Counted from the first letter of the stretch, positions 7,850 through 63,132 are shown. The stretch: 64,000 nt of DNA from Vampirovibrio sp. (GCF_041737375.1 NZ_JBGSRV010000008.1:88500-152499), one strand, 5' to 3'. Translations and numbers: made by a program. The notes: a model not told the origin generated them from the sequence alone.

Positions 7850-8242
7850 ATGGCTTCGGTATCCATTCGTCCTGATTTTTCGCCCTCAACTCGGGGATTG
7901 CTACCTCAACAGCCTGCTGGTTTCGTCTCAGGGGCTTCGGTTGGCCCCGCTTCAATCAGCAAGGCCCCGGTGGGTATTTCTCCCGCGCTTTCCGATTTTA
8001 TTGAATTTCAAACCATGATGGCTTCCTCTAAAAATTTGCATTTAAAGGATCATAGTCGAGTGTCTGTGGCCAAAACATCGTTCTTGTCAGGGATGCTGGC
8101 TGCGGTTCTCACCGCCATTCCCACTACCGTTTCCGCCATTAATGGGCAAGGCGACAAGTTGTTTTTGGTGCCTATTTTGGGAACGCTGGCTGCCTTTCAT
8201 GGCGCGCTTTTGGGCTTGCTGTTAAACCACAATCGGGATTAA
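7850..8242 (+). CDS. Hypothetical protein, Ser/Pro-rich N-terminus plus two C-terminal TM helices
   Basis: ORF with GAGG upstream; hydrophobic hairpin at C-terminus. Confidence 0.6.
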   Translation: MASVSIRPDFSPSTRGLLPQQPAGFVSGASVGPASISKAPVGISPALSDFIEFQTMMASSKNLHLKDHSRVSVAKTSFLSGMLAAVLTAIPTTVSAINGQGDKLFLVPILGTLAAFHGALLGLLLNHNRD

Positions 8243-17843: not shown

Positions 17844-18893
17844 TTAACTGGAATGAGGTTTCATTCGGCTCAGCATGGCCGTGGTGATATCCACAATGGC
17901 CTTTTGTTGTTCTTTCCGGCTCATGGTTGCCGCCAAGTCGGGAAACTGCAAGCCGTAATCTCCAAATTGAGAATGATTGCCCCCTTTTAGCTCGATAACG
18001 GGGGTGTCTTTGGGCATCAGGCGCTGGAAATCGTAAAAAATATGCTTTCCAAACAGGTTATCGTTGCTGCCCTGAATAAACACCATTTCCATCTTTTTCT
18101 GGCTTAAGTCCACAAAGGGAAAAGAGGCCCAAAAAGCGACGCCTTTGACTTTGGGGTCCGGTTTTCCGGTAATGTATTTCTGGGCCATGGCCCCCCCCAA
18201 GGAGTGGCCTGCGATGGCCCAAGCCTTGACCGCAGGGAATTCCTGAATGATTGAATCGGCTTTTTGGCTGCCTACAAGGATCATGTTGTGAGGCATATGG
18301 GCAATCACCGTGGTGTAGCCGCGTTCCGCAAACTGGCGGGCCATTGCCGCATAACTCTGGAAGTCCACCATGGCCCCTGGGTAAATAATCATGCCTTGTT
18401 TTTTGGGTGTTTTGGGTAAAAAGGCAATCCGGTCTTTCTGAATGCTGACGCTGACTTTTTGATCCGGCTTCAATGCGTCAAGCGCCCTTTGGGACGGCAA
18501 TTGAGAAGGCCCGTGAAGGCCAGTTTTTTCAGTGCGTTCGCGTTGCTCTGCTTTTGAAGGAGAAGGCTCCAGAACCCATCTGGGGTAAGCGCTCAATGCC
18601 CGATGCATTTTAGAACGCAAATGAGAAGGCACTTTGGGGGCGTTGGTTTGAAGAGGAGACAGGCTCGCTGTAACGGGTTGACGCGTGGAAGATTGTCCTG
18701 TTTTTGGGCGGATGTTGCCCAATTGACCCGGCTCGGCCTTTTGCTTTTTACTGAACAAGAAGTGATCTTGCGGCTTATCTAATGTTTTTAGCCGGAGGAG
18801 GGGGTAGGTTTCATTATCCGGTATCCCTGCTGTTTTTAGAGAACCCGTTGGGTTTGAATATCCACGGATAGAAAAAGACGTAAAAACAACCAT
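17844..18893 (-). CDS. Alpha/beta hydrolase with long N-terminal extension
   Basis: YPGA, GHSLGG nucleophile elbow, GSND, GGNHSQFG; GGGAGG RBS. Confidence 0.85.
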   Translation of the reverse strand: MVVFTSFSIRGYSNPTGSLKTAGIPDNETYPLLRLKTLDKPQDHFLFSKKQKAEPGQLGNIRPKTGQSSTRQPVTASLSPLQTNAPKVPSHLRSKMHRALSAYPRWVLEPSPSKAEQRERTEKTGLHGPSQLPSQRALDALKPDQKVSVSIQKDRIAFLPKTPKKQGMIIYPGAMVDFQSYAAMARQFAERGYTTVIAHMPHNMILVGSQKADSIIQEFPAVKAWAIAGHSLGGAMAQKYITGKPDPKVKGVAFWASFPFVDLSQKKMEMVFIQGSNDNLFGKHIFYDFQRLMPKDTPVIELKGGNHSQFGDYGLQFPDLAATMSRKEQQKAIVDITTAMLSRMKPHSS

Positions 18894-46371: not shown

Positions 46372-46650
46372 TCAGGCGATTAAATCAATTTTTTTGCCTT
46401 TTTGGCTGACCACAATCAATTGCGGTTCATCGGCCCCGGTCATGTAGGCAATGCCGTTAACACCCAGCAAAACCGGAATGGTCATCAGCATGCTGGCCTG
46501 TTGTAGGGCATTTTGCATGGTGCTTTGATGTTTGCGAGCCTCGGTTGCTTTATTACCAAAGGCCACTGGATTTTGAGCCAGGTTGGTATTGAAAGATGTT
46601 TGGAGGGTGGTGCGAGAAGGCACCACTGCATGGGTATATATAGATGTCAT
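46372..46650 (-). CDS. Small hypothetical protein with F-G leader and one hydrophobic segment
   Basis: GAGG RBS; PVAFGN at about residue 30. Confidence 0.65.
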   Translation of the reverse strand: MTSIYTHAVVPSRTTLQTSFNTNLAQNPVAFGNKATEARKHQSTMQNALQQASMLMTIPVLLGVNGIAYMTGADEPQLIVVSQKGKKIDLIA

Positions 46651-47275
46651 AATTTAAACCACCTCTGCGGCAATGGATAGATGAATTGGACCCTTCCATC
46701 ATTTTTGAAAAATGAGCTTGAAAATGGAATTATTCTTACGTTTATGAACCCAAGGGTGAATTTAAAACTTAATAAAATTCAACAGGTGAACTCTGCAACT
46801 TAGAAGGGTAAGTCATCATAATACAGATCCGGGGTTTTGCAAAGTATCTACTTCGGCGATAGCCATGGCGGTCTTTAAGTGTTAATTTTCTTTAATTTTT
46901 TGTGTGAATCTTGAGCCTTGTTTGGGAAAACCACACTTTTTTTATGAAAAGCTTTCACTGTCTTTGTTTTGACTGCATGGTCGCTGCTTTGGGGCGAGCC
47001 ATTTTGGGGGTGGCGAGGTTTTCCAAGGGTAAGTTTAAACCGGTTGAAAACGCTGTAAACCTTTACTTAAAGAGGGTTTTCAGATTTTTTAACAGAATGG
47101 GTGATGAAGCGGGTGGGACCCAAAACAAAGGGCGGTATTTTTAAGGCTTTTGCTTGCTTGGCCTACTTTTTTCATATCATGGTCACAAAGTTTTGTTGCA
47201 ATTAGTGCAAACGGGCAAATTTTCCCCTTCACCATCTTTCATTGCAGTACAAAGCTCGTTAGCTACTAGGGTGTT

Positions 47276-48340
47276 ATGGTAACGACAATTTCACAATATA
47301 ATGCCTTGCCGTCCGAAAGGACGAGGGGGAAGTCTATACCGCCGCGGTTTGGCGGTGGGGCTATGGCTTTGGCCAAAATGGCCGGACAGCAACCTCAGCA
47401 AGAGGCTGTGGTGCGGGGAATTCGCCTGGCCACCGCGTTGAAAGAGAACCTGTTTGGGGCCAAACTCTTTAACAAAGACGTGCGGATGGGCGGACTGTCT
47501 CTGGAAGATGTGGCAGGCCGTTTGCAGACCCTGATTGGGGTTTACCTGCTGCAAGGCTACTATGCGGTTAAGGATGATAAGCACCCTTGGGAAACCAACG
47601 GGCGTAACGCCATGATTTGGGTGATGACCCTGGTGCTGCAAAACCTCACCAAAAGTGAGAATTATGGCTTGAATACCTTGCTGTGCAACCCGTTTATGCG
47701 CCAAAAGGGCCATCTCTCTTCCGAGATGAGCTGGCTGCAAAACGGCCTGGATAAGGTGCGTATGGATGCGGATTATCTGGATATCCTCCAGGATGCCGGG
47801 ATTTCCATCGACCCCGATGAAATGAAGGGCGCCCGAAAAGGCAAGAAGGCCCTGTGGGCGTCTTCTTGGCTGGATGCTAATAAAACCGACCTGATTAAGC
47901 GACGATATGAAGCCCTGAAAGCCAAAGTATCGACGCAGGACGGTAAAGAGGTACTCAGTCAGTTATCCAGAGAAGAACAGAAAATCTATAAAAGCATCCC
48001 CTCATTTTTCTATCGAATTAACGCCTGGAACGGCCTCTCTACCGCTATTATTGTGGGGTCAACCATTTATCTGATAGGTGGGGTGGCCATGAAAATCGTC
48101 AACAAGGTCATCTCGCCCCTGGATAAGGACTTTGACGGACCCAAAAACAAGCAGGCGGGGCAACCTTTCAAGCCCTCCCCCTTCGCTAAATCGCACCCAC
48201 CGCAAAGCCCCAGTCAGTCAGCCGCCGAAGCCAACCCGTCTCAATCCAGTTTAAACCCCACTCCCCCTATCCAATTTTTCCAGAGTTATGTGAGTCAACG
48301 TAGAAACACCCCATCCACCCTATCAGGGGGGGCTTATTAA
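47276..48340 (+). CDS. Hypothetical membrane protein with PRFGG leader and Pro/Ser-rich tail
   Basis: 354-aa ORF; several hydrophobic segments; TAATG coupling to the next gene. Confidence 0.8.
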   Translation: MVTTISQYNALPSERTRGKSIPPRFGGGAMALAKMAGQQPQQEAVVRGIRLATALKENLFGAKLFNKDVRMGGLSLEDVAGRLQTLIGVYLLQGYYAVKDDKHPWETNGRNAMIWVMTLVLQNLTKSENYGLNTLLCNPFMRQKGHLSSEMSWLQNGLDKVRMDADYLDILQDAGISIDPDEMKGARKGKKALWASSWLDANKTDLIKRRYEALKAKVSTQDGKEVLSQLSREEQKIYKSIPSFFYRINAWNGLSTAIIVGSTIYLIGGVAMKIVNKVISPLDKDFDGPKNKQAGQPFKPSPFAKSHPPQSPSQSAAEANPSQSSLNPTPPIQFFQSYVSQRRNTPSTLSGGAY

Positions 48341-51087
48341 TGTCGATATTGCCTTTCCCAATGGCCATGAACCCTTTTTCCCAAAAGCTGCTGGCTCAGT
48401 CAGTCAACCTGAGTTACGCCGGTCGGGGCGTTTACCGGGTTTCTGAAACCCAGCCCAGCCGTAAAGGCGACTATTGGTTCCGTGATTTTGGTATGGTGAT
48501 GGCTTGTACCTACATGACGGAAATGGGTTTTCGTGGCACTGAGCGGTTTTATACCATGCCATTGCTGACCAGCGCCCTGGAGTTGCATGCCCTGAACACC
48601 AATCAGGGTCAAAAGCAGGTGATTCCCGATTACAAAAACAAAAACCAGCTGCTGAGCGCCAAGGCTTTATACCCCAACGCGTTTAACTACACTGATATGC
48701 CGGATGCCCTCCGCAAAAAAATGATGGGTACTGTCATTCGCAACAGTGCTGATTTGGTTCCTCAAACCCTGCAACAGGAAGCGCTGAAAGAAATCAGTGA
48801 GTTGAAAGTGGATTCAACGCTCAAGGCACCGTTCAAGGCACAGTTAAAGTCATTGATTGAAAAGCCCATGGATGCTCAAAACGCTTCCAAGGTGGGTGAG
48901 TACCTGGGTAGCGCTACCTTAAAGCCCTATGCCCAGGATCTGAAGCGTATTGCCAAGCTGGATAACCAAACCGCGGTGGATGTTGAAATTGGCAAGCTGC
49001 TGGCTTCAAAAAAAGAATCGCCCGGCATCAATGTCTTGACGGCTCAGGTGCAAAACGGGGTTCGTCTCATTAAGGCCCAGCAGTTGGGCTTTTTACTAAA
49101 CCATCTGGATCGCACCCTGAATTTCCAGCATTATCTGGAAAGCAATTTTTTAGAGCCGAAAGACAGTTTGAAGTCTGTTGGCTCTGTGATCCCTCGTCAT
49201 TTTGAGATGCCTCGGGCTTTGATGCGTCAAAACAAGTTTAGCCCGCTGGATGAAATGGGTGAAATTGTCTCTGATCGTTTGCAGTTTTATGTCGGCAAGC
49301 TGGATTCTCTGCAAAGCAAGGCCAAAACCGAGCTGCGGGCCTTGGCTGAGGAAGTTCGCAAGTTGCCACTGGATCAGCGGGATGATGTGTTCTCTAAAAA
49401 GATCGGGGCCATTGAGAATCTGCAATTTCTCTACAAAAAAGAGTCTTTGACCGACTTTTGGCATGTGGGGCCTGAAGATCGCACCGCCATGCAGGAAATT
49501 TATAAAGAGCTGTATTCGCCCGAAAATTTCAACCATGAGCTGAAGAATAGTGCGAACCAAGGGGCTGAAGGAAAGTGGGCTCAAAATTCGGTAAACTGGG
49601 AAAACGAGTTTAAAGTTCAGAAAGATCGGCTGCGAGAATTTCTGATTCATCCCCCGGAGCATTCCTCCACGGGGCCACTAAAACGGCATAAGGGCTACAT
49701 CTCTCCCAACCAACTCAACACCCAGTTGTCGCACTTTGAAGGCTGGTTTGAAACCATGGCCAAAAGTCAGGAAGTTCGGCACAAAACCCTGGATAATTTA
49801 TGGCGCTATCTGGGCGCTGATATGATGCTACAGGTTAAAAAGAAAGTGAAAGTGGCTTTTGAGGAAGTCAACAAGCTGTCTTTTGACTATTTGCCGGAAA
49901 CCCACGCTTCTATGGCCCTGAGAAAAAGCGATCCTTCCCAGCCAGCCGAACGGGTGAGCAAGCAGCAGTTGCTGGCGGCTCGTTTGGAAGATATGGGACT
50001 GGGTCGCTGGCTTGAGCCTCATGAAATCGTGAACCTCAGCAAGGATCTGGAGCGCCATCTGCCTAAAATGCCTGCCAATTTAGAACAACATAGCGTTGAG
50101 CCTGTAATGGACAAGGTCAAGAAAACCATTTGGGCTCATTTAACCGGCACTGTTGACTGGGCAACGCTGAAAAAAGTGGCCCCCGAATTAAAGAAGCATT
50201 TGGATCATGAATTGGAACAGCTGAAAGTATCGGCACCTGAACAGCATCAAGCGGCTCAGGCCACTCAAAAAGTACGGGGTAAACTGTTTAGGCATTTAAC
50301 CAGTACAAATGCCTTTTGTGTGGAAGCGAAAGACCTGGGCGGAAAGCCTGCTTTCAGTCTGGAAACCTTGTTAAAGCCCCTGTTTCAAACCCACAACCTT
50401 CACGACATTCAGGATGAAGCCGGTAACTTGGTAAAAAGCGCTGAATGGACCTTTAAAAGCTTGATTGAGGACGGCAAACAAAGCCGTGCCATCAAATCCG
50501 CCGTTGATAAAATTCAGAGAAATGGCACCTGGCCCAAAATGATTGCCACGGTTGCCCTGAATTTCATTTTCTATGGCTGGTTGGCCAGTCGTTTTGACAA
50601 TAAAGTGTTGCAACCCTACGAAGAAAAGCTGGTGGCTCGCAAAGGAACCTCTCAGGATATCGTGACTGCGGGCTATCTGGGCTTGCTTCCAGCTGGTGTG
50701 GTTCTCAGCCAGATGTTTGATGCAGCGGCGGTACCGGTCTTCAAGCAAATGAACCACTTTACCCGGTTTGCCTCGGTGGGTGGGGCGGCGCTGGCCACTT
50801 TTGCGGGGTCTACCTACGGGTTTTTAAAATTACTGGAAAAGAATACACCGCCTTTACCGGGCTATCCACAAGCCCGTCAATCCAATGCCTCTCAAATTGG
50901 TTTTAAAAGCCTGGCCTCTCAGCCCTTGAATCGACCAGTCCGTGAAAACGCCCCTGCCTTGGGCAATGCCGCCTTCCCCTCCTCAGGCATGAACTCCCCG
51001 TTTGCTTCTCGCCTTCGGCCCACCTTTTCTCTACCCCTACCTCGCCCAGAATCAGCGGCGGCCAACCCCTTTATCACTTACCCGTAG
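48340..51087 (+). CDS. Large hypothetical membrane protein
   Basis: 915 aa; charged helical middle; three C-terminal TM segments; Pro/Ser-rich tail. Confidence 0.8.
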   Translation: MSILPFPMAMNPFSQKLLAQSVNLSYAGRGVYRVSETQPSRKGDYWFRDFGMVMACTYMTEMGFRGTERFYTMPLLTSALELHALNTNQGQKQVIPDYKNKNQLLSAKALYPNAFNYTDMPDALRKKMMGTVIRNSADLVPQTLQQEALKEISELKVDSTLKAPFKAQLKSLIEKPMDAQNASKVGEYLGSATLKPYAQDLKRIAKLDNQTAVDVEIGKLLASKKESPGINVLTAQVQNGVRLIKAQQLGFLLNHLDRTLNFQHYLESNFLEPKDSLKSVGSVIPRHFEMPRALMRQNKFSPLDEMGEIVSDRLQFYVGKLDSLQSKAKTELRALAEEVRKLPLDQRDDVFSKKIGAIENLQFLYKKESLTDFWHVGPEDRTAMQEIYKELYSPENFNHELKNSANQGAEGKWAQNSVNWENEFKVQKDRLREFLIHPPEHSSTGPLKRHKGYISPNQLNTQLSHFEGWFETMAKSQEVRHKTLDNLWRYLGADMMLQVKKKVKVAFEEVNKLSFDYLPETHASMALRKSDPSQPAERVSKQQLLAARLEDMGLGRWLEPHEIVNLSKDLERHLPKMPANLEQHSVEPVMDKVKKTIWAHLTGTVDWATLKKVAPELKKHLDHELEQLKVSAPEQHQAAQATQKVRGKLFRHLTSTNAFCVEAKDLGGKPAFSLETLLKPLFQTHNLHDIQDEAGNLVKSAEWTFKSLIEDGKQSRAIKSAVDKIQRNGTWPKMIATVALNFIFYGWLASRFDNKVLQPYEEKLVARKGTSQDIVTAGYLGLLPAGVVLSQMFDAAAVPVFKQMNHFTRFASVGGAALATFAGSTYGFLKLLEKNTPPLPGYPQARQSNASQIGFKSLASQPLNRPVRENAPALGNAAFPSSGMNSPFASRLRPTFSLPLPRPESAAANPFITYP

Positions 51088-51116
51088 TGATGGCTGGTTG
51101 CTAATCGCTTGATTTG

Positions 51117-51509
51117 CTAGGATCGCCCTGTTTTGACCTGGCGAATGGCTTGCCCTTCGGACTCCCAGATTTCCAGCACCCGATCCATGTGGGTCAATTC
51201 CATTAAACGAGACACCTGATCGTTCAGTCCGTACAGGGTCAGGTTGCCTTTAATTTCCTTGCACAGCTTTAACAGGGAAATTAATACGGCAATGCCAAAA
51301 CTGTCCAGGGTTTCCACCTGGGCCAGGTTTAAAACCACATGCCGATGCCCTTCGCTCAGGAGTTTGGCCACATGGCTTTTTAAAATCAGGGTTTTGGGGT
51401 AGCCAAACTTGTCATCCACAATGTCCACCACCACACACTCCGCTAAAAACCGATTGGCCAGTTCCATGCAATTGCTCCCCAAACCTTCTTTGCCAGTTGA
51501 TTTTACCAT
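51117..51509 (-). CDS. STAS-domain anti-sigma factor antagonist
   Basis: VVLNLAQVETLDSFGI phosphorylatable Ser; AAGGAG RBS. Confidence 0.9.
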   Translation of the reverse strand: MVKSTGKEGLGSNCMELANRFLAECVVVDIVDDKFGYPKTLILKSHVAKLLSEGHRHVVLNLAQVETLDSFGIAVLISLLKLCKEIKGNLTLYGLNDQVSRLMELTHMDRVLEIWESEGQAIRQVKTGRS

Positions 51510-51734
51510 TTTTACTCCTTTTGTTTTGAGCCAATGATTTAAAATCGGCACAATGATTGATTCCAGCTGGCTTGATTGTTGTTTTTTGATTTACACAAAA
51601 TAGGGGATATAAAAATTTTTAAAACGGGCATAATGTTTGGGGAAGATGTTTATGCTTTTTGTCTGGAGCCGATTTTGAGGGCGTCTCCCTGAAGAGGCGT
51701 ATTAATCAGAAATGCAAGGGATTTGGACTAATAA

Positions 51735-52556
51735 ATGATCGATCGTATTTTTGCAGCTCCTAAAGGCCCCGATTTACAGCAGGGTATTGATTTTGCTTTG
51801 AACAACCAGCTGGATTATGAAATCCCCACATTTTATTATGTGGAAAATCTGGACAATCAGGAAGCCGAAATCGCCCGATATCGCCATTTACTGCGTGATT
51901 TTCATGGGATGCTTTCCATGCACGGCCCCATTTTTGATACCAATGTGGTCAGCATGGATCCAGAAATTCTGAAAATTTCGCAACACCGCTACCGCCAAGC
52001 CATTCAGGTGGCCAAAGCGCTGGATGTTCGGTATCTGGTGTTTCACTCCCAGTGGACCCCCATTTATACGGCGGCCAATGTAACCCGGCTGTGGCTCAAC
52101 AAAGTAACCGATTTTTGGGAACGGTTGATTGATGAGGAGCACCTTCAGGATTCTAACCTGACCATTCTGGTGGAAAATTTTCTGGATGACGTGCCAGACA
52201 CCATGAACACGCTACTGAGCCGGGTGGACTCTCCCCGACTTAAGGCCTGCGTGGATACTGGCCATATCAATATTTTTTCCGAGCACTCTCCCATTGACTG
52301 GATTAGGGAGCTGGGCAGTCATGTGGCTTATATTCATGCTCATAACAACGGTGGAGAGCTGGACAGCCACGATTCCTTTGAAAAAGGCATGCTGGATATG
52401 GAAGGCTTTCTCAATCACGTGGCCCTGCTTCCCCAAAAAATTCATCTGGCCATTGAAACCTCGACCATTCAAGGGCTTGAAAGCAGTTATGAGATGCTGA
52501 AGCCTTATTTAAGCCTTCAAAAAGAACAGTTTGCTTCCAAAAGCTTCCTGATTTAA
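51735..52556 (+). CDS. Sugar phosphate isomerase/epimerase (AP endonuclease 2 / xylose isomerase-like TIM barrel)
   Basis: HGP, VFH, VEN, DTGH, HAHNN...DSH, IE metal ligands. Confidence 0.85.
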   Translation: MIDRIFAAPKGPDLQQGIDFALNNQLDYEIPTFYYVENLDNQEAEIARYRHLLRDFHGMLSMHGPIFDTNVVSMDPEILKISQHRYRQAIQVAKALDVRYLVFHSQWTPIYTAANVTRLWLNKVTDFWERLIDEEHLQDSNLTILVENFLDDVPDTMNTLLSRVDSPRLKACVDTGHINIFSEHSPIDWIRELGSHVAYIHAHNNGGELDSHDSFEKGMLDMEGFLNHVALLPQKIHLAIETSTIQGLESSYEMLKPYLSLQKEQFASKSFLI

Positions 52557-52634
52557 TAGGGGGCACCTGAAGGCACCCCCTGAAAAAGATTGAGAGCTTT
52601 GAGAATGACCTCTTTTGAAGATTGAAGAGGGGCT

Positions 52635-53015
52635 TTATTTCTTAAAGAGCCATACGGACCCAATGGCTCCGGCCAGAGGAATGCCGATGGTTAAAGCTCC
52701 GGTAATCAGCAGCGGGTGAAAAAACAAGCCCACGGCCATTTGCATCAGTCCCAACGGAACGCCCACAGTCAGGCCAACAGTGGATAAAAGCCCTACCGTA
52801 ACGGCCGTGGCTTTTTTGGTGAAATTCCAGAGGGAATTAAGAATGCCACCCTCTTCCTTGTCCCCAAATTTCGCGAGGGGGGGGCGATTGGTTTGAAATC
52901 GGTCGTTTGGGAGTCCAGCCTTTTGGGTCTCAGGGCGCAGGTTTCGAGATTTGCCAGCCGGTTGGCTGGGCTTTGTTTGGCTGGATTGTAAGGGCTGGGC
53001 GATTGCATGAACCAT
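52635..53015 (-). CDS. Hypothetical protein with DRF...KFG leader and C-terminal TM hairpin
   Basis: AGGGAG RBS before MVHAIAQ; long Gly-rich hydrophobic C-terminus. Confidence 0.7.
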   Translation of the reverse strand: MVHAIAQPLQSSQTKPSQPAGKSRNLRPETQKAGLPNDRFQTNRPPLAKFGDKEEGGILNSLWNFTKKATAVTVGLLSTVGLTVGVPLGLMQMAVGLFFHPLLITGALTIGIPLAGAIGSVWLFKK

Positions 53016-53305
53016 AGTAAGCGACTCCCTGTTAGGGCTGGAATTTAGATTCTTGAAAGTATAAAACCCGCTCAAGGATTTTGTTGCTAGTGGGATTGTT
53101 CATTAGTCAATTCCTTATCCTGTTTGTGTTAGCCGCTTGTGTAAATTTGAAATGGGAGGTCGTTTTTTTGGCTTGGTTAACAATGACAGGTTAATTATAT
53201 TCTTTTGTGGGATTTACCTTTTGCATGGACTTGGTAGGATTTTGCACATTATCTAGTCGTTGAATGTGGTTATCATTAAAGTAGATTTAATATGAAGAAT
53301 GCGTC

Positions 53306-55585
53306 ATGATCGCTCTACAGGGTTATGAGCCAGAGGGGCTGCTGAACGCTTTGTTTCAGCAAGCCTGTGCAGGTCTGGCCATTGTTAGTAAGGACGGGTT
53401 TTTTTTAAGCGTCAATCCACGCTTTTGTGACATTACCGGATACTCTGAAGCGGAACTTCTGGAGCGAACCTTTGCCAGTATTACGTTTTCGGATGATCTG
53501 GAGCTGGACTTAAGTCAGGCTGCACTGCTATTTCAGGGGCAAATTGCCCAGTATGAAATAGAGAAGCGTTATATTCATAAAAACGGAACCATTGTTTGGG
53601 TTAGCCTTTCCTGCTCGGTGTTTGATGCCTGTAAGGGGCTGGGTTTGGCCGTGGTGCAGGAAATCAGCCTGAGAAAGCAAAGGGAGCAGGAGCTTCAACA
53701 GAGCCAGCAGCAGTTTCAGCGGATTATTGCCGGTTCCAACGAAGGTTTTTTTGATTGGGATTTGGTCACAAACACCATGTACTGGAGTGAGCGGCTTTAT
53801 CACATTCTGGGGATTTCTTCCAATGATTACCCCGCTAATCTGGAGACCTTGCTCTATTTTGTGCTGGCGGAAGATCGGGAACGAAAGCGAGCGTCAATTC
53901 AGCATGTCATAGCCACGGGTATTCCCTTGGTGGAGGAGTTTCGGATTCGCCAGCCAGCTGGTAAAATCCTGACGCTTCGATGTCGTGCCCAGCCGGAAGC
54001 CGATGCAAAAGGCCATGTCGTTCGACTTTCGGGAATGTTAACGGACATTACCGAAAACAGGCAACAGGAAGAGACTTTAAAGTTTAGTGAAGCCCACTTT
54101 CGGTTTGTGACTGATACGGTGCCTTTAACGATTTGGCTGACCAACGATCAGCTGGAAATCACTTATCTTAATTTGCCGTGGTTTGAATTTACCGGCCAAT
54201 CTTTTAATGAGGTTCTGAATCTGGGGTGGCTGGATAAAGTCCATCCAGACGATCGCGAGGCAACCCGTCTTCTTTTTTTCCAAACCGCCAGCCAACGCCA
54301 AAAAGTCCAGCTGGAATACCGCTTAATGCGCAAAGACGGTGTTTATTGTCACATGTCGTCTGTGGGGGCACCCTTGCTGCACCCCGATGGTGTTTTTCAA
54401 GGTTACATTGGTTATGTCATTGATATTTCTGAAAGAAAGCAGGTAGAGGCCGCCGTTTACCAGAGTGAGGAAAACTGGCGGGTCATGGCCAATTCGATAC
54501 CTCAGTTTGCATGGATGGCGGACGCTGAGGGACGAATTTTCTGGTTTAACCAGCGGTATTACGATTACACGGGGCTTCCGTTTTCTGAAATAGAAGGTTG
54601 GGCATGGACCCGACTGATTCATGAGACTCAGGCCGAATCGGTGATTCACACCCTTCATTTGGCCTGGGAAACTGGAGAGCCCTGGGAGGCTACTTTTCTG
54701 CTGCGAGGGAATGAAGGGCATTATCGGTGGTTTTTATCCCGTGCCATGCCCATTCGGAACGCTCAAGGGCTGATTACCCGCTGGTTTGGTACGCATACCG
54801 ATGTAACCGAGCTTCAGGAGACTCAGGATGCGTTGAAGCAAAGTGAAAGAAAGCTGGCCCGGAGTAATCGGGATTTGGAGCAATTTGCGGCCATTGCCTC
54901 TCATGATTTGCAAGCGCCATTACGCAAGGCCAAAACCTTTTGCGACATGATTCACGAAAGAGTCAAAGATCAGCTGGATGCTGAATCGCTGATGCTAATG
55001 GAGCGGGTTCATGCCTCGTTAGAAAGTATGCAGGCTTTGATTAGCGATTTATTGCTGCTTTCCAAAGTCTCCAGAGAGCCCAAAACTTTTCAATCGGTTG
55101 ATTTATGGGCTGTGGTGCAGCAGGTGTTGCTGACCTTATCGGATTTGATTGAAGAAAAAGAGGCGAGTATTCAGCTGGGTCCACTGGAAACGGTGTATGG
55201 CGATCCTGATCAGCTGGCCCAATTGTTCCAAAACCTTTTACAAAACGCCCTGAAGTACCAACCGGAAGCTCAAAAACCGGTGGTGGATATCCAGGTGTTT
55301 CCGTCAGAGCTTCAACGGTGTCAGATTGTGATTAGCGACAATGGCATCGGCTTTTCACCAGAGAAGGCTGAGCATATTTTCAGGCCCTTTGAGCGCTTGC
55401 ATGGCAAGCAAAGCCCTTACGATGGCAACGGCATCGGACTGGCGATTTGTCAGCGCATTGTAGAGCGCCATGGGGGACGGATTTGGGCGCATAGCGAAGT
55501 GGGCCAAGGTGCTACTTTTACGGTACTGTTGCCCAAAGACCCTCGCCACAATGAAATTTGGGATACTCAATTTCAATTGGCTTGA
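53306..55585 (+). CDS. Cytoplasmic multi-PAS sensor histidine kinase
   Basis: Four PAS/PAC repeats; H-box ASHDLQAPL; N-box QNALKY; DNGIGF; GIGLAIC. Confidence 0.95.
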   Translation: MIALQGYEPEGLLNALFQQACAGLAIVSKDGFFLSVNPRFCDITGYSEAELLERTFASITFSDDLELDLSQAALLFQGQIAQYEIEKRYIHKNGTIVWVSLSCSVFDACKGLGLAVVQEISLRKQREQELQQSQQQFQRIIAGSNEGFFDWDLVTNTMYWSERLYHILGISSNDYPANLETLLYFVLAEDRERKRASIQHVIATGIPLVEEFRIRQPAGKILTLRCRAQPEADAKGHVVRLSGMLTDITENRQQEETLKFSEAHFRFVTDTVPLTIWLTNDQLEITYLNLPWFEFTGQSFNEVLNLGWLDKVHPDDREATRLLFFQTASQRQKVQLEYRLMRKDGVYCHMSSVGAPLLHPDGVFQGYIGYVIDISERKQVEAAVYQSEENWRVMANSIPQFAWMADAEGRIFWFNQRYYDYTGLPFSEIEGWAWTRLIHETQAESVIHTLHLAWETGEPWEATFLLRGNEGHYRWFLSRAMPIRNAQGLITRWFGTHTDVTELQETQDALKQSERKLARSNRDLEQFAAIASHDLQAPLRKAKTFCDMIHERVKDQLDAESLMLMERVHASLESMQALISDLLLLSKVSREPKTFQSVDLWAVVQQVLLTLSDLIEEKEASIQLGPLETVYGDPDQLAQLFQNLLQNALKYQPEAQKPVVDIQVFPSELQRCQIVISDNGIGFSPEKAEHIFRPFERLHGKQSPYDGNGIGLAICQRIVERHGGRIWAHSEVGQGATFTVLLPKDPRHNEIWDTQFQLA

Positions 55586-56841
55586 TGAAAGTCTGTGTTG
55601 CGCATGTTGTAAGAAGATTTCAGGTGCTTTTCTGTTTTGAACAAGGCTTGTAATCGATTAAGCCAACTGGGCTTTGCCTGAAAGCGAGGCGATTGCTCCC
55701 ATTGCCAAGCGGTTTTGATGATTTGATTTAAATCATGACGGGGTGCCCAGCCTAGCGTTTTTTGAGCCTGATCGTAGCTAGCCACCAGCCGATCGGGGTC
55801 GCCTTCCCGTCGAGGGGCTTGTTCTACCTGAATGGGTTTTCCGGTGATGGTTCTGCATGCCTCAATCACCTCTCGCACTGAATTGCCGGTTCCCGTTCCC
55901 AAATTCAGGGCCAACCCGGTGTTTGGATGCTGTTCCAGATAATTGAGGGCTTTGATGTGGGCGTCAGCCAAATCCTGGATATGGATATAATCTCGAATGC
56001 AGGTGCCGTCCGGGGTGTTATAGTCATTTCCAAATTGCTGGATGGCCCTTTTTTGCCCTTTGGCCACTTGTAATACCAAAGGGATCAAATGGCTTTCATT
56101 GCGGTGGGCTTCCCCTAGTTTGCCAGCTTCATCGGCGCCTGCCGCGTTGAAGTATCTTAAAGCCACATAATCCATTTTTCCGGCTTCTTTCAGTTGGGCC
56201 AAGCTTTGCTCCATGTTGAGTTTGGAAGCGCCATAGTTGTTGATGGGTCTGGTTGGGCTGGTTTCCACAATGGGCACTTCAGTGGGGTTGCCATACACGG
56301 CGGCTGTGGATGAGAACACAAAGCGCTTTACTCCTTTGTTTAGCGCAGATTTCAACAGCTGAATGGTCTGGCTCACGTTATTGTCCAGATACTTCATAGG
56401 ATCTTCCTGAGATTCGGATACCGAAGCGCTGGCCGCAAAATGGACAATCGCTTTTACTTTAAATCGGCCCATCAGGCCCTGAACCTTTCCATCTCCCACT
56501 TTGGCTTTGACAAAGCGAATCCGCCCAGGGTAGCGCTTTTTGAGTGCCTGAATGGCCCCGAGATGCCCCTCCGATAAGTCATCAAGGACTACTACTTTTT
56601 GGCAAGCCGGTTTTTGCATCAAATATTCATTCACAAAATGGCTACCAATATAGCCCGCTCCGCCAGTGACCAGAATGAATTCGTCATTGGATACTTTCGA
56701 TATTTTTGATAGTTTCGATTTTTGGCTTCCTGAAAATGGCACAACCGGGCAAAGTGCCTGCTTATTGGCCATGCTGGGCGCTTGATTGCGTTTTGCCAGA
56801 TAGGAATTAACCCGCTTTTCTACCGGAAATCCAAGTTGCAT
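55573..56841 (-). CDS. galE: UDP-glucose 4-epimerase with N- and C-terminal extensions
   Basis: VTGGAGYIGSH, FSSTAAVYG, YGASK, LRYFNAAGA, DGTCIRDYIH; GAGGAGG RBS supports the long start. Confidence 0.92.
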   Translation of the reverse strand: MQLGFPVEKRVNSYLAKRNQAPSMANKQALCPVVPFSGSQKSKLSKISKVSNDEFILVTGGAGYIGSHFVNEYLMQKPACQKVVVLDDLSEGHLGAIQALKKRYPGRIRFVKAKVGDGKVQGLMGRFKVKAIVHFAASASVSESQEDPMKYLDNNVSQTIQLLKSALNKGVKRFVFSSTAAVYGNPTEVPIVETSPTRPINNYGASKLNMEQSLAQLKEAGKMDYVALRYFNAAGADEAGKLGEAHRNESHLIPLVLQVAKGQKRAIQQFGNDYNTPDGTCIRDYIHIQDLADAHIKALNYLEQHPNTGLALNLGTGTGNSVREVIEACRTITGKPIQVEQAPRREGDPDRLVASYDQAQKTLGWAPRHDLNQIIKTAWQWEQSPRFQAKPSWLNRLQALFKTEKHLKSSYNMRNTDFHQAN

Positions 56842-58172: not shown

Positions 58173-58388
58173 CGGAATGAATTCAGGCGGCCTCAGACAT
58201 GGGCGGTGCTTTTTGATTAAATCAGGTCAGTGATTGCGGGTGTTCGTGCTACCATAATGGTGTCCTTTCAATAATTAACGTTTGCGAATGGACTTGAGCC
58301 CTTGAGAGCTTCTATTTCAAGGGCTCTTTATGATGTAGACATTCTGCAACAATACCCGGAAGCCTCTTATTTCAGGAGAGGAATAACC

Positions 58389-58661
58389 ATGTGCAATAAT
58401 CATGACGTACCCATCAGCGACCCTCAGGGGCAAGAATGCCATGTGGCAAACCCGGTTGGAATGGACTTGGCGGACTTTGTAGCATTGGCCCAGAATGACC
58501 GGGAAACTGCCATTCAAGTGTTTATGAAAGACGTTCCTTCTGCTTATCTGGATGAAGCCAACCGCCCCTTATTGGAGCAAGCCTTTGATGGCTACATTGC
58601 CTTTTTGAATGAACAACAGCAGCAGCAAGCCCCACAGGAGAAAAAGCATGTCCCTTGCTAA
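58389..58661 (+). CDS. Small acidic hypothetical protein A
   Basis: GGAGAGGA RBS; similar to the next gene. Confidence 0.7.
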   Translation: MCNNHDVPISDPQGQECHVANPVGMDLADFVALAQNDRETAIQVFMKDVPSAYLDEANRPLLEQAFDGYIAFLNEQQQQQAPQEKKHVPC

Positions 58662-58884
58662 GGAAGCCCCTATTCAGGCGTGTTTAGCGGAGCCGGTTGC
58701 TGAATTGAGTGATGCCGAGTTTATCGCTTTGGCAGAACGGGACCGGGATGCCGCGATTGCCTTGATGTGGCCGGAGCCGGAAGAGCAAGCGGCTATGAAG
58801 CTGCTGGATGCGGTGGCCTTTGATGGGTTTATCGCTTCTCTCAAAGGAAAATTGGCGGAGCAATCCTTGCCAAAGGCTGATTAA
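58648..58884 (+). CDS. Small acidic hypothetical protein B (paralog of A)
   Basis: AGGAG RBS; shared F(V/I)ALA..DR..AI and AFDG(Y/F)IA.L motifs. Confidence 0.7.
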   Translation: MSLAKEAPIQACLAEPVAELSDAEFIALAERDRDAAIALMWPEPEEQAAMKLLDAVAFDGFIASLKGKLAEQSLPKAD

Positions 58885-59349
58885 ATGAGCAAGCCCCCGC
58901 CCCCAGAGAAAAAACCAGTGTACGTTCAGTTCAATGATAAGTTACTGGATGTTCCCTGCCTGCTGGTTCAGAAAGGCAAGGCTCAGCGCAAGTTTATTGA
59001 TGCCCGCTGGATTTATCTCAAGTCCACCGACACCTCATACGAGGACAGTGAGTTCTACGAGCAGTTTGACGCTTGGCTGAAAGACATTTTGAAGTACTTT
59101 AAACCGGTGGAAGGCAACGATTACGTCACTTGGCGCCGGGTTGACTTTCCGGAGAAAAAGCCCCGACACGATATCGCCTTTCGCTTTGATCTCGCGGTGG
59201 ACATTGGCGGGTTTTTCTTTGCGGATATGGAGAAGGTGAGGCCCGAAGAAGCGCTGGATATGATTTTTGAGGTGTTGAAAGATTTTAAGCTGATTTCCTG
59301 GGAGGACGAGGAGGAAGGCGAGATTTTGATTCGATCCCGCAAAAAGTAA
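58885..59349 (+). CDS. Hypothetical protein
   Basis: 154 aa; ATG immediately after the upstream TAA. Confidence 0.7.
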   Translation: MSKPPPPEKKPVYVQFNDKLLDVPCLLVQKGKAQRKFIDARWIYLKSTDTSYEDSEFYEQFDAWLKDILKYFKPVEGNDYVTWRRVDFPEKKPRHDIAFRFDLAVDIGGFFFADMEKVRPEEALDMIFEVLKDFKLISWEDEEEGEILIRSRKK

Positions 59350-59424
59350 TCAAGTTTATGGGCGTTGGGTGCTTTTTAGGGCAAATCTCGTTTTTCGTGT
59401 GAGTGAGCTTGAGAATCCACGCAA

Positions 59425-59464
59425 ATTAAAACACCCCCGGATTCTTTGTAATCCTGTGGGAGTG
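59425..59464 (-). terminator. Terminator-like hairpin downstream of the tRNA
   Basis: Minus strand CACTCCCACAGGATT-loop-AATCCGGGGGTG then TTTTAA. Confidence 0.55.
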
Positions 59465-59487
59465 TGACGTTTCGGAGTTTAGGAATA

Positions 59488-59559
59488 TGGGCGCTACTGG
59501 ACTTGAACCAGTGACTTCCACCGTGTGAAGGTGGCACTCTACCGCTGAGTTAAGCGCAT
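59488..59559 (-). tRNA. tRNA-Val(CAC) copy with mismatched 5' end (probable att remnant or pseudo-tRNA)
   Basis: Intact D arm, anticodon arm CCACC-TTCACAC-GGTGG and T arm (TTCAAG); acceptor 5' strand ATGCGCT against 3' AGCGCCC leaves pairs 1-2 unpaired; no encoded CCA. Confidence 0.85.
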
Positions 59560-59808
59560 CTGGCGTACGTTTTGCCATTTTTGTTTCTCCTGACCTTTGC
59601 TTGAATGTTGAAGTTTTGTTGAACTTGTTATTGGATCGGGATCATATGGCACATCCGAAGCAAGGTTCAAGATGAGGTGCTTGTAGAGTCAGCCGCTTGT
59701 GTAGTCAAAAGAATGATGGGCAATGCCAACCTGTGCCAGTCAGAGATTCAGGAAAAAAACGGGCAAGCTCCTGTTAGAATCAGACAGTGCGGAACCGGAG
59801 GAAGTTTT

Positions 59809-60123
59809 ATGAATCGGATTAAAACTGGAGATATTGTTCGAGCATTTAAAAAAATATGGCCCCACATGACGGGCGATATGGTTCGCAAAGCGGAGCAGGC
59901 GCAAATGATTCGAGCCATCCGCAGCCCGTTTTCAGATCGATCAGGCTTATTTTATGATTCCGACAGCATTAAGTCCTTCGTTCAAAAGCAGGTACTGCAA
60001 AAAGAAATTACCCCCGACCAAGCCCGAATCGTTTTGGCCGAGCTGGGAATCAATCAGACCCCATTGAGATTGCCTAACCCAATAATATATTTACCCCTGG
60101 TTACCATCCGAGCTCAAGGCTAA
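59809..60123 (+). CDS. Possible excisionase/MerR-like HTH protein
   Basis: GGAGGA RBS; TGDIVRA...VRKAE...I.AIRSP....FYDSD pattern resembles Xis/MerR HTH; adjacent to the att candidate. Confidence 0.5.
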   Translation: MNRIKTGDIVRAFKKIWPHMTGDMVRKAEQAQMIRAIRSPFSDRSGLFYDSDSIKSFVQKQVLQKEITPDQARIVLAELGINQTPLRLPNPIIYLPLVTIRAQG

Positions 60124-60312
60124 GTTTGATTCCTCGGCCTTCAACTCTTCAAATATTTTCAACACTCTCTTTCTGAAATTTTCATCATTCCTGCACATTT
60201 CTAAAAACAGGGCATCGGAGATCAGCTCATCAAAGTTAATCAAGTTTTTTTCGGGCCCCTGGCTGAGCGCTTGCAGGCGCTTTCCGCCCTGATTATTCAC
60301 TTGTGCTACCAT
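60091..60312 (-). CDS. Small hypothetical protein
   Basis: GAAAGGA RBS; preceded by a strong hairpin. Confidence 0.6.
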   Translation of the reverse strand: MVAQVNNQGGKRLQALSQGPEKNLINFDELISDALFLEMCRNDENFRKRVLKIFEELKAEESNLALSSDGNQG

Positions 60313-60677
60313 TGTCTCGTTTCCTTTCATTGTCGTTGCTATGCGGCTAACTGGATGGATGCCGAAGCCTCGACGGTTGCACCCGTCGGGGCTTCATCGT
60401 TTTGAGGGAGTACCAACGCCCCGCTCATGATTAGAAAATAAAGTGCCCCGTTCGATTGCTATGGTGTCCATAGGTTTTGTGGCTCGTTTGGTAAGCATCC
60501 ATTAGGTGTTCCATTAAGCCCTTAAATTCTCTCTATAACTAAGTTTAAAGCTTTTGTTTACGAAAACAATATATCTCGGCAAGTTGTTTATGTCAACAAA
60601 AAACTAAAACGCTTGCCAATGGATAGACTAACCTCTATATTGTTAAAGTGAACATTAACAATGAAAGGGCTTAGAAG

Positions 60678-60902
60678 ATGCCAAGAGGCGGTTGGCGTGG
60701 AGGGGGAAGACCCCCAAAAACAGAGGGTGTAAAGCGTACCCTGTTGGGATGCCGGGTTAAGGATGACGTTAAAAACTGGCTTTATGCCGAAAAGGATCGA
60801 ACGGGCGCCAGCGTGGGGGAAATCGTAGACCTGGCCGTTACCGTACTCCAAGAGACACCAGCCCGCCATCTGCCGGAGGCGACAGTAGAAACGGAGGAGT
60901 AA
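60678..60902 (+). CDS. Small DNA-binding protein (GGRP hook + ribbon-helix-helix-like)
   Basis: MPRGGWRGGGRPPK then strand-helix-helix pattern (RTLLGCRV...S.GEIVDLAV). Confidence 0.65.
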   Translation: MPRGGWRGGGRPPKTEGVKRTLLGCRVKDDVKNWLYAEKDRTGASVGEIVDLAVTVLQETPARHLPEATVETEE

Positions 60903-60907
60903 ACGCC

Positions 60908-61054
60908 ATGGCCAATTTCAAGCGTAGGAAAACCCGACGCAACGTGCGTTGCACCATGTGTACCCAGTCCCGCTTTCTCGGTAATAACAAAGGCCGCTAC
61001 AAGGCGAAAGAGGAAGCGTCCCGAAAGGCGGATGCTTTTGATGGGGAGACGTAA
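60908..61054 (+). CDS. 48-aa basic CxxC protein (not in ORF track)
   Basis: GGAGGAG RBS; MANFKRRKTRRNVRCTMCTQSRFLGNNKGRYKAKEEASRKADAFDGET*. Confidence 0.6.
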   Translation: MANFKRRKTRRNVRCTMCTQSRFLGNNKGRYKAKEEASRKADAFDGET

Positions 61055-61225
61055 GGACACCCAGCGGATGGAATGCCTTATGGGTCCTTCCAGGGATAGG
61101 GGATCTGGCGGGTGACGCGCAACCCCGGAAGGCTGAGATGAATATCAAAAAAAATATTATTTCGTTTCGTTTTGCAAGGTTGAAGATTTAAACAGAGGTT
61201 ATAACTTGGAGTCCACAGGAAGGCT

Positions 61226-62023
61226 ATGACAGGCAAGAGACTAACAATTGGTCCTTACATGGATCAGCCCTATGGTCCGAATCCGCATTATCTTGATCCA
61301 AAAAAGGGGCGGCTCATGTGCGATATTCCCTTTTCTGAAATAAAAGAAGGAGGCTTTTATCAATTTGAAATAATGCAAGCCGCAGCAGAACTCTTCTATC
61401 TGTTCAACGGTAGTTTAAAAGCCACAGCTTTTTATGAAAAGTTTTTTCGATATGAATTTATAGATTTACGTTCTGCTTTTATTGAAAACGATTATAAAAA
61501 ATGGCCCCTACGGCGTTATAAGCTTCTACAGGACGATAAAGAGAAAATAGATTTTTTTGAATATTCGGAGCAACTACAAGCGTTGCTTGTGAGCATTGCT
61601 ATGGCTTGGGATAGGGAAACCCCTATAAGTCTTGGGGACCTACTCAAAACCTTTTCAGCGGCTCCTATTATGAGCCAAGCCCTTTATAATCAATTCCTTG
61701 AGAACCCACCAGCTTTCTCCTATTCCCTTCCAAAATATCCGGGTTATGAAGAGTACATAAAATCAAAAATTGAAACGATCAATATTGTTAATTCACAGCC
61801 AAAACTGACGGGAATGCGAAATAAAATTTATGAGCTGCTGTTAAGCAATCGAGAAGGTCTGACAGTTAAAGACTTATGCCGCTTGCTTCCCAATAACAAT
61901 GAAGGCGAAAGACCAGAGAGCACGATTACTGTGAACCTGGGCGAACTTCGAAATCAAGGTTTAGCTCATCCTAAAGACGACAGACCTCGCGGAAAAATAT
62001 GGGTTTTTACCGGTTATTTGTAA
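61226..62023 (+). CDS. AT-rich hypothetical protein with C-terminal winged helix
   Basis: IYELL....GLTVKDLCRLL...ESTI...LGELRNQGL. Confidence 0.7.
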   Translation: MTGKRLTIGPYMDQPYGPNPHYLDPKKGRLMCDIPFSEIKEGGFYQFEIMQAAAELFYLFNGSLKATAFYEKFFRYEFIDLRSAFIENDYKKWPLRRYKLLQDDKEKIDFFEYSEQLQALLVSIAMAWDRETPISLGDLLKTFSAAPIMSQALYNQFLENPPAFSYSLPKYPGYEEYIKSKIETINIVNSQPKLTGMRNKIYELLLSNREGLTVKDLCRLLPNNNEGERPESTITVNLGELRNQGLAHPKDDRPRGKIWVFTGYL

Positions 62024-62249
62024 CAAAATATTTCCCTATTTTTCCCTATATTTTCCCTACAGCCTCTATTAATAAGGGTTTAAGCTGATTTTTGGGGTGA
62101 ACCCCTACATAGGGAAACGTTTCATTAAATTCTGCCAAGATGCTTCTACCAGCCAACGCGGCGCAGAGAGCTCAAGGCGAAGATTTTCTTAACCTTTGTT
62201 CTGTCAGCCTAGCGGCTGGCAGTTTTTTTAATTTATTGAGGTTAAGACT

Positions 62250-62843
62250 ATGCATTACCCAACCAGCCATTTTAGGGGCTTAGATCAAGCTGCGGAAGAA
62301 GCGTTCCTGAGGGCTTACCAGTCGCTCATCATCTTCGAGGGAGAGCGGCCCACTGTTCGCTTTTCTCGTGACGCCGCCGAAATCTTCCGCCAGTTGGCAG
62401 AATTGCGTCGGAAAAACTGGAGCACCTCCACCCACTGGAATCAGACGGCAGAGCAAGTTGGTCTTGCTGGTGAGCTTGCCGTCCAGTTCTACCTTGGCAT
62501 CTCTGCGGAAACGGCCATGGCCGAGTTTAAAGCTGGACTCATGGGCGATCAAGGGCATGACGTGGAAGCCTTAGGCCTGAAGCTGGATGTTAAAAGTACG
62601 AGGGGCAGTGCTTTAAAATTTAAATTTTCCCGCACGAACTCCCATGCTAGTCGGGCGGATGGCTTCATTTTCACCTATGTCGAAAATGAAGGTTTTGAAA
62701 TGCGGGTTCAGTTGTTGGGCTGGAGCCATCGGGCAAAGGTAAAGCCGCATTTGAGGGATGACGGCCAACGTTTTTTTGTCCGCATGGAGACACTCCGACG
62801 GGAGGGTGCGTTGCACCTCGTCCGTCAGTTGAGAAACGCATAG
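62250..62843 (+). CDS. PD-(D/E)xK nuclease-like protein
   Basis: GLAGELAV...GDQGHDV....LDVKST; GAGG RBS. Confidence 0.6.
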   Translation: MHYPTSHFRGLDQAAEEAFLRAYQSLIIFEGERPTVRFSRDAAEIFRQLAELRRKNWSTSTHWNQTAEQVGLAGELAVQFYLGISAETAMAEFKAGLMGDQGHDVEALGLKLDVKSTRGSALKFKFSRTNSHASRADGFIFTYVENEGFEMRVQLLGWSHRAKVKPHLRDDGQRFFVRMETLRREGALHLVRQLRNA

Positions 62844-62847
62844 CAGG

Positions 62848-63132
62848 ATGCAGAAAGGAAACCCCATGAACGGTAATAAAAAAGCTGGGGAGCCGTCTAG
62901 CATCCCTGACAGCAATCTAAAACATTCCATCAGCGGCCATGGCATTAGACGCCATATCGTCAGTTTCCGGGACTTATGCGATTTAGCCTTCAGTCCATTA
63001 TGGGCAAGGCTCACACAGGCAAGACAGCGCGCTTTCTTCCAATGGCTGGTGATTTGCCTCGGTGACACACGCTTATTCGGGGAAATTGGTGCCTCCTACA
63101 TCCGGTTCCTGCAAAGAAAGGCGGTGAAATAA
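62848..63132 (+). CDS. Hypothetical protein
   Basis: ORF coupled by TAATG to the replication gene. Confidence 0.5.
   Translation: MQKGNPMNGNKKAGEPSSIPDSNLKHSISGHGIRRHIVSFRDLCDLAFSPLWARLTQARQRAFFQWLVICLGDTRLFGEIGASYIRFLQRKAVK

Follow-up and report, generated by a model that had tools for sequence, protein, structure and literature searches.

The stretch analysed here, referred to below as the window, comprises 64,000 nucleotides of Vampirovibrio sp. (contig C1:88500-152499 of the source genome; features of the window are given in its own positions), and encodes several proteins of unrelated families that begin with a low-complexity leader carrying a short island around a Phe-Gly dipeptide. 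Vampirovibrio is a genus of non-photosynthetic relatives of cyanobacteria, the type species of which preys on Chlorella; it is a pest of algal ponds and, to our knowledge, the sole cultured predatory relative of cyanobacteria. An earlier note on this DNA had proposed that a Phe followed by Gly or Ser, embedded in the first 25-55 residues of unrelated proteins, marks effectors for delivery to a host or prey cell. The reading frames and leaders that it described between positions 46372 and 56841 are indeed present, and the leaders are devoid of a hydrophobic core; the motif itself required redefinition. Within the loose pattern, comparison of homologous sequences reveals a sharper signal that is real, in the form of a conserved island, or tag, lying in otherwise variable, presumably disordered leaders.

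The source genome (G000; 2.98 Mb in 23 contigs) was analysed using 2535 genes called with a codon-bias and ribosome-binding-site model of its own, and for all questions regarding N-termini the longest open start was taken, except where orthologues set another start. Comparisons were made within a set of 41 related genomes of the order, which includes the congeners G001, G005, G006 and G007 among others, and the whole genome of another genus of the order (G008) served as a second test genome.

Leaders and Phe-Gly islands in the window

The archetypal carrier of the tag is a 354-residue orphan with no Pfam family, encoded on the plus strand at 47276..48340, whose leader (residues 1-74) precedes a helical core, a hydrophobic helix at the C-terminal end and a tail rich in Pro, Gln and Phe. 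Its AlphaFold2 (AF2) model has a mean predicted local distance difference test (pLDDT) score of 61.4, with values below 50 at residues 1-12, 14-53, 58-74 and 295-354, and both the leader and the tail are thus predicted by the model to be disordered. The AF2 model of this family found no PDB match by Foldseek at E<=0.001, and a profile search of PDB sequences with the family gave a best E-value of only ~0.3. The family is present in 29 of the 41 related genomes, and homologues recorded under Vampirovibrio chlorellavorus, Vampirovibrio sp. and Vampirovibrionales share 38-65% identity with the protein.

The tag of this protein, P-P-R-F-G-G, occupies residues 22-27 (47339..47356, plus strand), and the importance that had been ascribed to it is borne out by the family alignment: Phe25 is invariant in 25 family members and constitutes the sole invariant column between Met1 and Arg70, with neighboring columns being 20-40% conserved. 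Each of the eight genus orthologues retains the start of the protein (M-V/L-T/I) together with a P/L/V-R-F-G-[GS] island, which in one of them reads I-P-Y-F-G-G, and the codons of the tag vary synonymously among eight orthologues of the gene, indicating constraint at the protein level. The publicly recorded protein begins at Met30 and has 325 residues, so that it is devoid of the leader (window 47276-47362); the 29 codons upstream of Met30 are, however, conserved in more than 20 homologues, which indicates the ATG at 47276 as the true start.

Divergently from this gene, on the minus strand (46372..46650), lies the gene for a 92-residue orphan that has no Pfam family and is made up of a leader and one hydrophobic segment; it is syntenic in 4 congeners, and 3 further homologues were found in the protein database. 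Here the tag takes the variant form N-P-V-A-F-G-N (residues 27-33; 46552..46572, minus strand), and the site stands as such a variant, since neither F31 nor G32 changes among 4 homologues from the protein database. In the 4 genus orthologues the Phe stands beside a conserved Pro and is followed by a Gly at most two residues on, F and G being directly adjacent in one of the four.

The third carrier in this part of the window is a 126-residue orphan (52635..53015, minus strand; no Pfam family) that combines a leader of ~70 residues with a two-helix hydrophobic hairpin, and whose start is a conserved Met rather than the TTG at 53075. It has 6 homologues of 104-126 residues and is present in only 2 of the 41 related genomes. 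The tag, A-K-F-G-D, spans residues 48-52 of the 126-residue form (52860..52874, minus strand), and its prior identification is corroborated by the invariance of F50 and G51 in 7 sequences; the D-R-F upstream of it keeps an invariant Asp, and the orthologue in a congener reads P-R-F-G-G-G at the position of the tag. The hairpin (52680..52802, minus strand; Kyte-Doolittle windows 92-110 and 114-132 of the long form) falls in a region that is nearly invariant in the 7 sequences. The suggestion that hydrophobic hairpins follow the leader is correct for the 146-residue and 134-residue forms (residues 92-132 and 83-128, respectively) and applies to some carriers only. None of the orphan proteins of the window was found by phmmer to have a paralogue in the genome.

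The sharpened motif, its position and its carriers

As a motif, a Phe followed by Gly or Ser within the first 25-55 residues occurs at chance level and displays no positional enrichment. In 2378 proteins the density of F[GS] is 5.86 per 1000 residues overall versus 6.1-7.0 in the first three bins of ten residues, and at this background density approximately one third of proteins would show the loose motif. The sharper motif reads [Pro/Val]-[Arg/Lys/Gln/His]-Phe-[Gly/Ser/Ala]-[Gly/Ser/Ala], lies 5-70 residues from the start of the protein and is borne, together with a leader, by ~20 proteins of unrelated families in this genome. The residue that precedes the Phe is a single basic or polar one (R/K/Q/H/Y) in 28 family members, and the second small position is often occupied by Leu, Val or Asn. 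The distance from the start can be very short, with the Phe at residue 6, 11 or 18 in three carriers of the source genome and the tag beginning at residue 7-13 in several carriers of the second genus. A literature search, in which subscription journals were mostly outside the scope and supplements were not covered, found no publication describing such a motif.

The leaders, in which Pro, Ser, Thr and Gln abound, are also distinctive in composition. In 14 carriers they are rich in Pro (12.9%, about double the 6.0% of average N-termini) and in Ser and Thr (17.3% jointly), and they are markedly basic, with 12.7% Lys and Arg against 4.0% Asp and Glu, as opposed to 9.9% and 9.4% in N-termini of the proteome; hydrophobic residues amount to 20.6%, compared to 32% for the proteome. 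In nine carriers that were examined, the first 80 residues include no 19-residue window with a mean hydropathy of at least 1.6.

The motif is conserved, biased towards N-termini and spread in a modular fashion over unrelated domains. A pattern defined post hoc places 12 of its 17 matches in the first 80 residues, where 4.0 are expected. A further indication stems from a profile trained outside both the source genome and the second test genome, on 53 windows from five families with equal weights, with 100 local shuffles that keep the composition of each N-terminus serving as a control. At a score of at least 14 bits, this profile finds 12 N-terminal matches in the source genome versus 1.2 in the shuffles (standard deviation 1.2, maximum 6), and at 12 bits the numbers are 22 versus 5.7; just one of the 13 matches at 14 bits or above lies beyond the first 80 residues. 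The 12 N-terminal matches comprise 5 orthologues of training families, 2 remote relatives of one training family and 5 new proteins. Among the new matches of the profile are a 620-residue protein with ankyrin repeats, a pentapeptide-repeat protein, an alpha/beta hydrolase, a PlsC-type acyltransferase and a double AAA+ protein of 1138 residues. In the second genus, a pre-set pattern has 11 of its 20 matches in the first 60 residues versus 3.6 under a uniform expectation.

The carriers encoded elsewhere in the genome include a 508-residue orphan (C19:20038-21564), whose family keeps the motif across two families of the order. This protein family is found in 24 of 26 relatives, in 14/14 genomes in the order and in 0/66 in other families of the class, and an ESM Atlas search with it returned only Melainabacteria clusters without names. 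A 496-residue orphan membrane protein, whose family keeps the motif in all five congeners, is encoded within an array of seven flagellin genes (C23:88-10243), an arrangement that recurs in 5 congeners; a shared promoter of flagellin genes and carriers was not evident by eye. In the ABC1-like kinase family, R-F-G is present in three of four N-termini. The PlsC-type acyltransferase, which was not part of the profile training, keeps the tag in 5 other genomes, including one from another family of the order, and its more distant homologues do not have the leader; the N-terminal part of the ankyrin-repeat protein has no orthologue in 25 relatives. Further carriers include many orphan membrane proteins and several small proteins. 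No recurrent chaperone-like or protease gene was found in the neighborhoods of the carriers.

The independence of these families was evaluated with hhalign, which compares the 354-residue family with six other carrier families or proteins at a probability of at most 4.5%, and the 508-residue with the 496-residue family at 9%, whereas it joins the 496-, 621- and 291-residue carriers at 84-95%. The tag is therefore present on several, albeit not all, independent families.

Known signals, candidate machines and the meaning of the tag

A number of known signals resemble the tag in part. The flagellar gate-recognition motif (GRM, F-x-x-x-hydrophobic) of rod and hook subunits is described as docking on FlhB-C (Evans 2013, cited in Bryant et al. 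2022, PMC8983047), and as lying at least 30 residues into the protein (PMC8983047). Both elements are short, centered on a Phe, located in a disordered N-terminal region and, if the tag acts as a signal, read in the cytoplasm, and flagellar-type gates exist in this genome. However, the tag can lie as near as residue 5-13 from the start, and its Phe is followed by small residues, with Ala, Met, Val, Glu, His, Asp or Gly at position +4 instead of the hydrophobic residue of the rule described there. The analogy that the earlier note had drawn with type III chaperone-binding motifs, and with it that to the flagellar gate motif as described, fails because of the tag's location 5-13 residues from the start in several carriers.

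Chlamydial Inc proteins carry an N-terminal type III signal and a bilobed hydrophobic domain, and we know of no consensus motif among them. The 126- and 130-residue proteins of the window are similarly built, with a disordered leader of ~50-80 residues, two membrane helices and a short loop, but no injectisome was found here, and the lifestyle is epibiotic and not intracellular. Motif-marked effector classes such as oomycete RxLR, Plasmodium PEXEL and the type VI MIX/RIX proteins also display a short conserved N-terminal motif across unrelated, fast-evolving proteins of a single lineage, enzymes and repeat proteins among them; in the present case, in contrast, the motif is not preceded by a signal peptide, a search for a type VI sheath gene found none, and the sequence is another one. 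Double-glycine leaders, which have a helix pattern, likewise end in two small residues, but here it is the Phe that is conserved, the cargo is large and the exporter is patchily distributed. Lastly, chloroplast transit peptides contain semi-conserved FGLK and FP/RK motifs, and prolines matter for membrane-protein cargo (PMC8645953). They share with the leaders a hydroxylated, Pro-rich, basic, acid-poor and unstructured character and a loose motif of Phe, Gly or Pro, and basic residues; transit peptides are, however, eukaryotic and nuclear-encoded, and the resemblance is one of composition only.

Regarding the machines that could read such a tag, FHIPEP export-gate genes occur in all 41 related genomes, with at least two copies in 40 of them. 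In the source genome, a family search identified FlhA, FlhB, FliP, FliF and the type III secretion system ATPase twice each, and a second FliQ, FliR and FliH, as well as two sets of FlgB, FlgC and FliE, were assigned by position or Pfam. These two flagellar-type gene sets (C11:146980-152206; C2:98762-105480; C14:407951-418518; C19:10672-14674; C5:199007-200080) have one FHIPEP gene in a fliPQR-flhBA operon and the other beside genes for rod proteins, FliE, FliF and FliH, and a separate contig carries a second FlgB-FlgC-FliE-FliF-FliG-FliH-FliI operon. Of the two sets, the second is divergent, with FlhA paralogues that are ~38% identical and no recognisable FliG, and both sets have orthologues in the second test genome. 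Both FHIPEP genes fall within flagellar-type sets, and no non-flagellar injectisome was found. Vampirovibrio is described with a single polar flagellum (PMC4451040). The canonical flagellar substrates of this genome do not have the tag, and no carrier is tightly linked to export-gate genes, save for the 496-residue one within the flagellin array in six genomes.

Other exporters are distributed more narrowly. C39 peptidase-ABC (PCAT) exporters were found in 12 of the 41 genomes, and not in G001, G005, G006 and G007, which keep the tag; VirB4, of which the source genome has two genes (in addition to four secretins), was found in 6 of the 41, and not in three congeners nor in any other genus but one, despite the presence of the tag there. 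Type IV secretion systems (T4SSs) and PCAT exporters are thus too patchy to read the tag. Delivery of hydrolytic effectors through a T4SS was proposed for V. chlorellavorus by Soo et al. 2015 (PMC4451040); given the narrow occurrence of VirB4, this model of predation cannot be general for the group.

Several established signal types were tried and rejected. A Tat signal, which has a twin arginine ahead of a hydrophobic stretch and an AxA site, is incompatible with the single basic or polar residue before the Phe and with the lack of a hydrophobic core after it, and a Sec signal peptide or lipoprotein signal with the lack of such a core in the leaders of nine carriers. Double-glycine/PCAT cargo was discarded on the absence of a C39 exporter from the search results in tag-keeping congeners, a T4SS substrate on the finding of VirB4 in just 6 of the 41 genomes, and a type VI reading on the type VI sheath gene not being found. 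In type IV prepilin leaders, the comparison founders on the order Phe-Gly and on the lack of a hydrophobic helix directly after it, and the true prepilin-type proteins of this genome are different. Eight paralogues of the latter type share an identical N-terminal block, which supplies the top exact 5-mers in the N-terminal word test, and one of them adjoins the gene of the 621-residue carrier.

The interpretation that we tentatively prefer, with somewhat less than an even chance of being correct, is that of a lineage-specific N-terminal recognition or sorting tag. One shared cytoplasmic partner would bind the exposed Phe-Gly island and sort the carrier, the likeliest fate of which would be a hand-over to an export or membrane-targeting route, and the reader could be either of the two type III export gates of flagellar type, the only candidates tested with a fitting phyletic breadth. 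What survives of the earlier interpretation is a lineage-specific, conserved, N-terminal motif that lies in the disordered leaders of proteins with no detectable homology, the analogy to type III and flagellar motifs having foundered on spacing. Its idea of effector-like cargo does agree with the nature of the carriers, which include proteins with ankyrin or pentapeptide repeats, an ABC1-like kinase, an acyltransferase and alpha/beta hydrolases, and an effector/type III reading is plausible. A far more speculative elaboration, to be regarded as a long shot, is a two-stage address, in which the tag would direct the carrier to a flagellar-type gate turned effector conduit, and the leader would then mimic a chloroplast transit peptide in algal prey, so that ankyrin, kinase and lipid-modifying proteins as well as membrane proteins with a hairpin would reach the plastid envelope.

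A series of observations weighs against the preferred interpretation as a sorting tag. With regard to statistics, PRFG has 8 of its 10 occurrences in the first 70 residues (p=1e-4), which is not Bonferroni-significant among 7442 words; the unbiased word in the Murphy-8 reduced alphabet, with 6/10 N-terminal occurrences (p=0.015, rank 336/9300), is not significant either; and in the second genus the profile is not enriched relative to local shuffles, with 7 vs 5.0 matches at 12 bits and 2 vs 1.1 at 14 bits. Genes and their starts, in addition, were predicted with a home-made caller. Orthologues of the 508-residue protein in a third family of the order do not have the motif, though both export gates are present there, and a pair of FHIPEP genes is likewise present in some other families of the class, where the 508-residue family was not found, so that the gates do not co-vary with the tag. 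We know of no type III signals with such a consensus. Among the carriers there are also several core membrane proteins that have a C-terminal membrane helix, a feature that would suit resident envelope proteins equally well.

The last point leads to a different explanation, possible though less likely than not, in which resident proteins would use the tag for docking or turnover in the cytoplasm, through binding to a hub, a chaperone or an AAA+ protease or its adaptor (for instance as an N-terminal degron), with no export involved. Unstructured N-terminal tails are known to initiate FtsH proteolysis, and many carriers are conserved membrane proteins whose leader lies on the basic side, presumably the one facing the cytoplasm, and which have a C-terminal helix with a Pro/Phe-rich tail; some of their families are wide, as described above for the 508- and 354-residue proteins (24/26 relatives and 29/41 genomes), and the genes of carriers are grouped in small operons, as might be expected for subunits of one complex. 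Docking, however, does not call for an N-terminal location, and yet 12 of the 13 matches at 14 bits or above are within the first 80 residues, and no tag is seen in the long, disordered tails at the C-termini of these proteins; moreover, the soluble ankyrin, kinase, acyltransferase and hydrolase carriers, some of which are species-specific, resemble an accessory cargo set. It is improbable, in our estimation, that the tag has no common function at all and reflects descent within a few diverged paralogous families combined with chance in low-complexity N-termini rich in Pro, Gly and Ser. N-termini in these genomes are generally Ser/Pro-rich, the 496-, 621- and 291-residue carriers are remote homologues according to hhalign, and the unbiased word tests and the profile in the second genus fell short of significance and enrichment; against this stand the composition-keeping shuffles, with 1.2 matches as opposed to the 12 observed, the observation that, in families with no detectable homology to one another, it is the Phe that is conserved best within the leader, and the acyltransferase family, which was absent from the training set and nonetheless keeps the motif across genera.

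Two further proposals concern the fate of the leader and the route of export. The leader could be a propeptide that a dedicated protease cuts at or next to the Phe-Gly, in the manner of double-glycine, prepilin or PEXEL-type processing, and the pair of G/S/A residues after the Phe does recall double-glycine cleavage sites, just as the region upstream of the tag is highly variable in both sequence and length, as propeptides are. Such processing is nevertheless quite improbable in view of the frequent Leu, Val or Asn at the second small position, a cargo of 92-1138 residues that is atypical for such leaders, the lack of a prepilin-like hydrophobic helix with Glu5 after the tag, the patchiness of C39 exporters (12/41, and not found in the four tag-keeping congeners), and the failure to identify a candidate protease. 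That the tag is a substrate signal of a VirB/D4-type T4SS, the conduit of predation proposed for V. chlorellavorus by Soo et al. (PMC4451040), would agree with the two VirB4 genes of this genome but is hardly credible given that VirB4 was found in only 6 of 41 genomes and not in three tag-keeping congeners. Known T4SS signals, in addition, are C-terminal.

Should the sorting-tag interpretation be correct, its presence on ~20 lineage-specific proteins, several of them with eukaryote-like domains, would provide a sequence-based list of candidate predation factors and a concrete handle on the machinery that reads it. Should it instead serve the docking or turnover of envelope proteins, the tag would still delineate a new set of co-regulated proteins within a phylum of which little is known.

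Remaining example sites and other features of the window

Three of the six example sites brought forward in the earlier note fall outside the motif. The VVPFSG site belongs to a 55-residue N-terminal extension (56677..56841, minus strand) of a GalE paralogue in which the Rossmann domain begins at residue 56; the ATG at 56841 follows an AGGAGGA, and there is no canonical start nearer to the Rossmann domain. The 8 GalE matches in 5 congeners all cover the query from residue 51-56 onwards and lie in open frames of 333-356 residues, and the extension, being missing from each of them, is thus unique to this genome and unsupported as a carrier. This paralogue (55573-56841, minus strand) also has a C-terminal extension of ~33 residues and is only ~52% identical to the GalE of congeners, and a second, ordinary GalE is encoded at C9:20191-21165. 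QDHFLFSK is part of a low-complexity leader of ~165 residues on an alpha/beta hydrolase (17844..18893, minus strand; Pfam Abhydrolase_5, residues 168-330), and this site likewise goes unsupported, as an orthologue was found in none of the five congeners. SDFIEFQ, in the 130-residue leader-plus-hairpin protein (7850..8242, plus strand), is kept in three of the five congeners but is a juxtamembrane block of different sequence, and hence a different motif.

In the same operon as the 354-residue gene, and syntenic with it in 6 congeners, is the gene of a 915-residue orphan (48340..51087, plus strand) with a sub-threshold Pfam match only; sequence inspection reveals C-terminal hydrophobic segments and a Pro/Phe-rich tail, and no tag. 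On the other side, a non-coding gap of 625 bp (46651-47275) separates the divergent 92- and 354-residue genes. Many carriers, as well as the 915-residue neighbor, end in a hydrophobic helix followed by a tail of 50-70 residues rich in Pro, Gln, Ser and Phe, with PF, NPF and FG dipeptides; such tails are seen in the window at 48150-48340 and 50880-51087 and in carriers encoded on C19, C23 and C5 of the source genome, and they represent a second shared low-complexity feature. The end of the window (58300-64000) consists of short, densely packed reading frames without obvious housekeeping character, and may be a mobile or phage-derived island.

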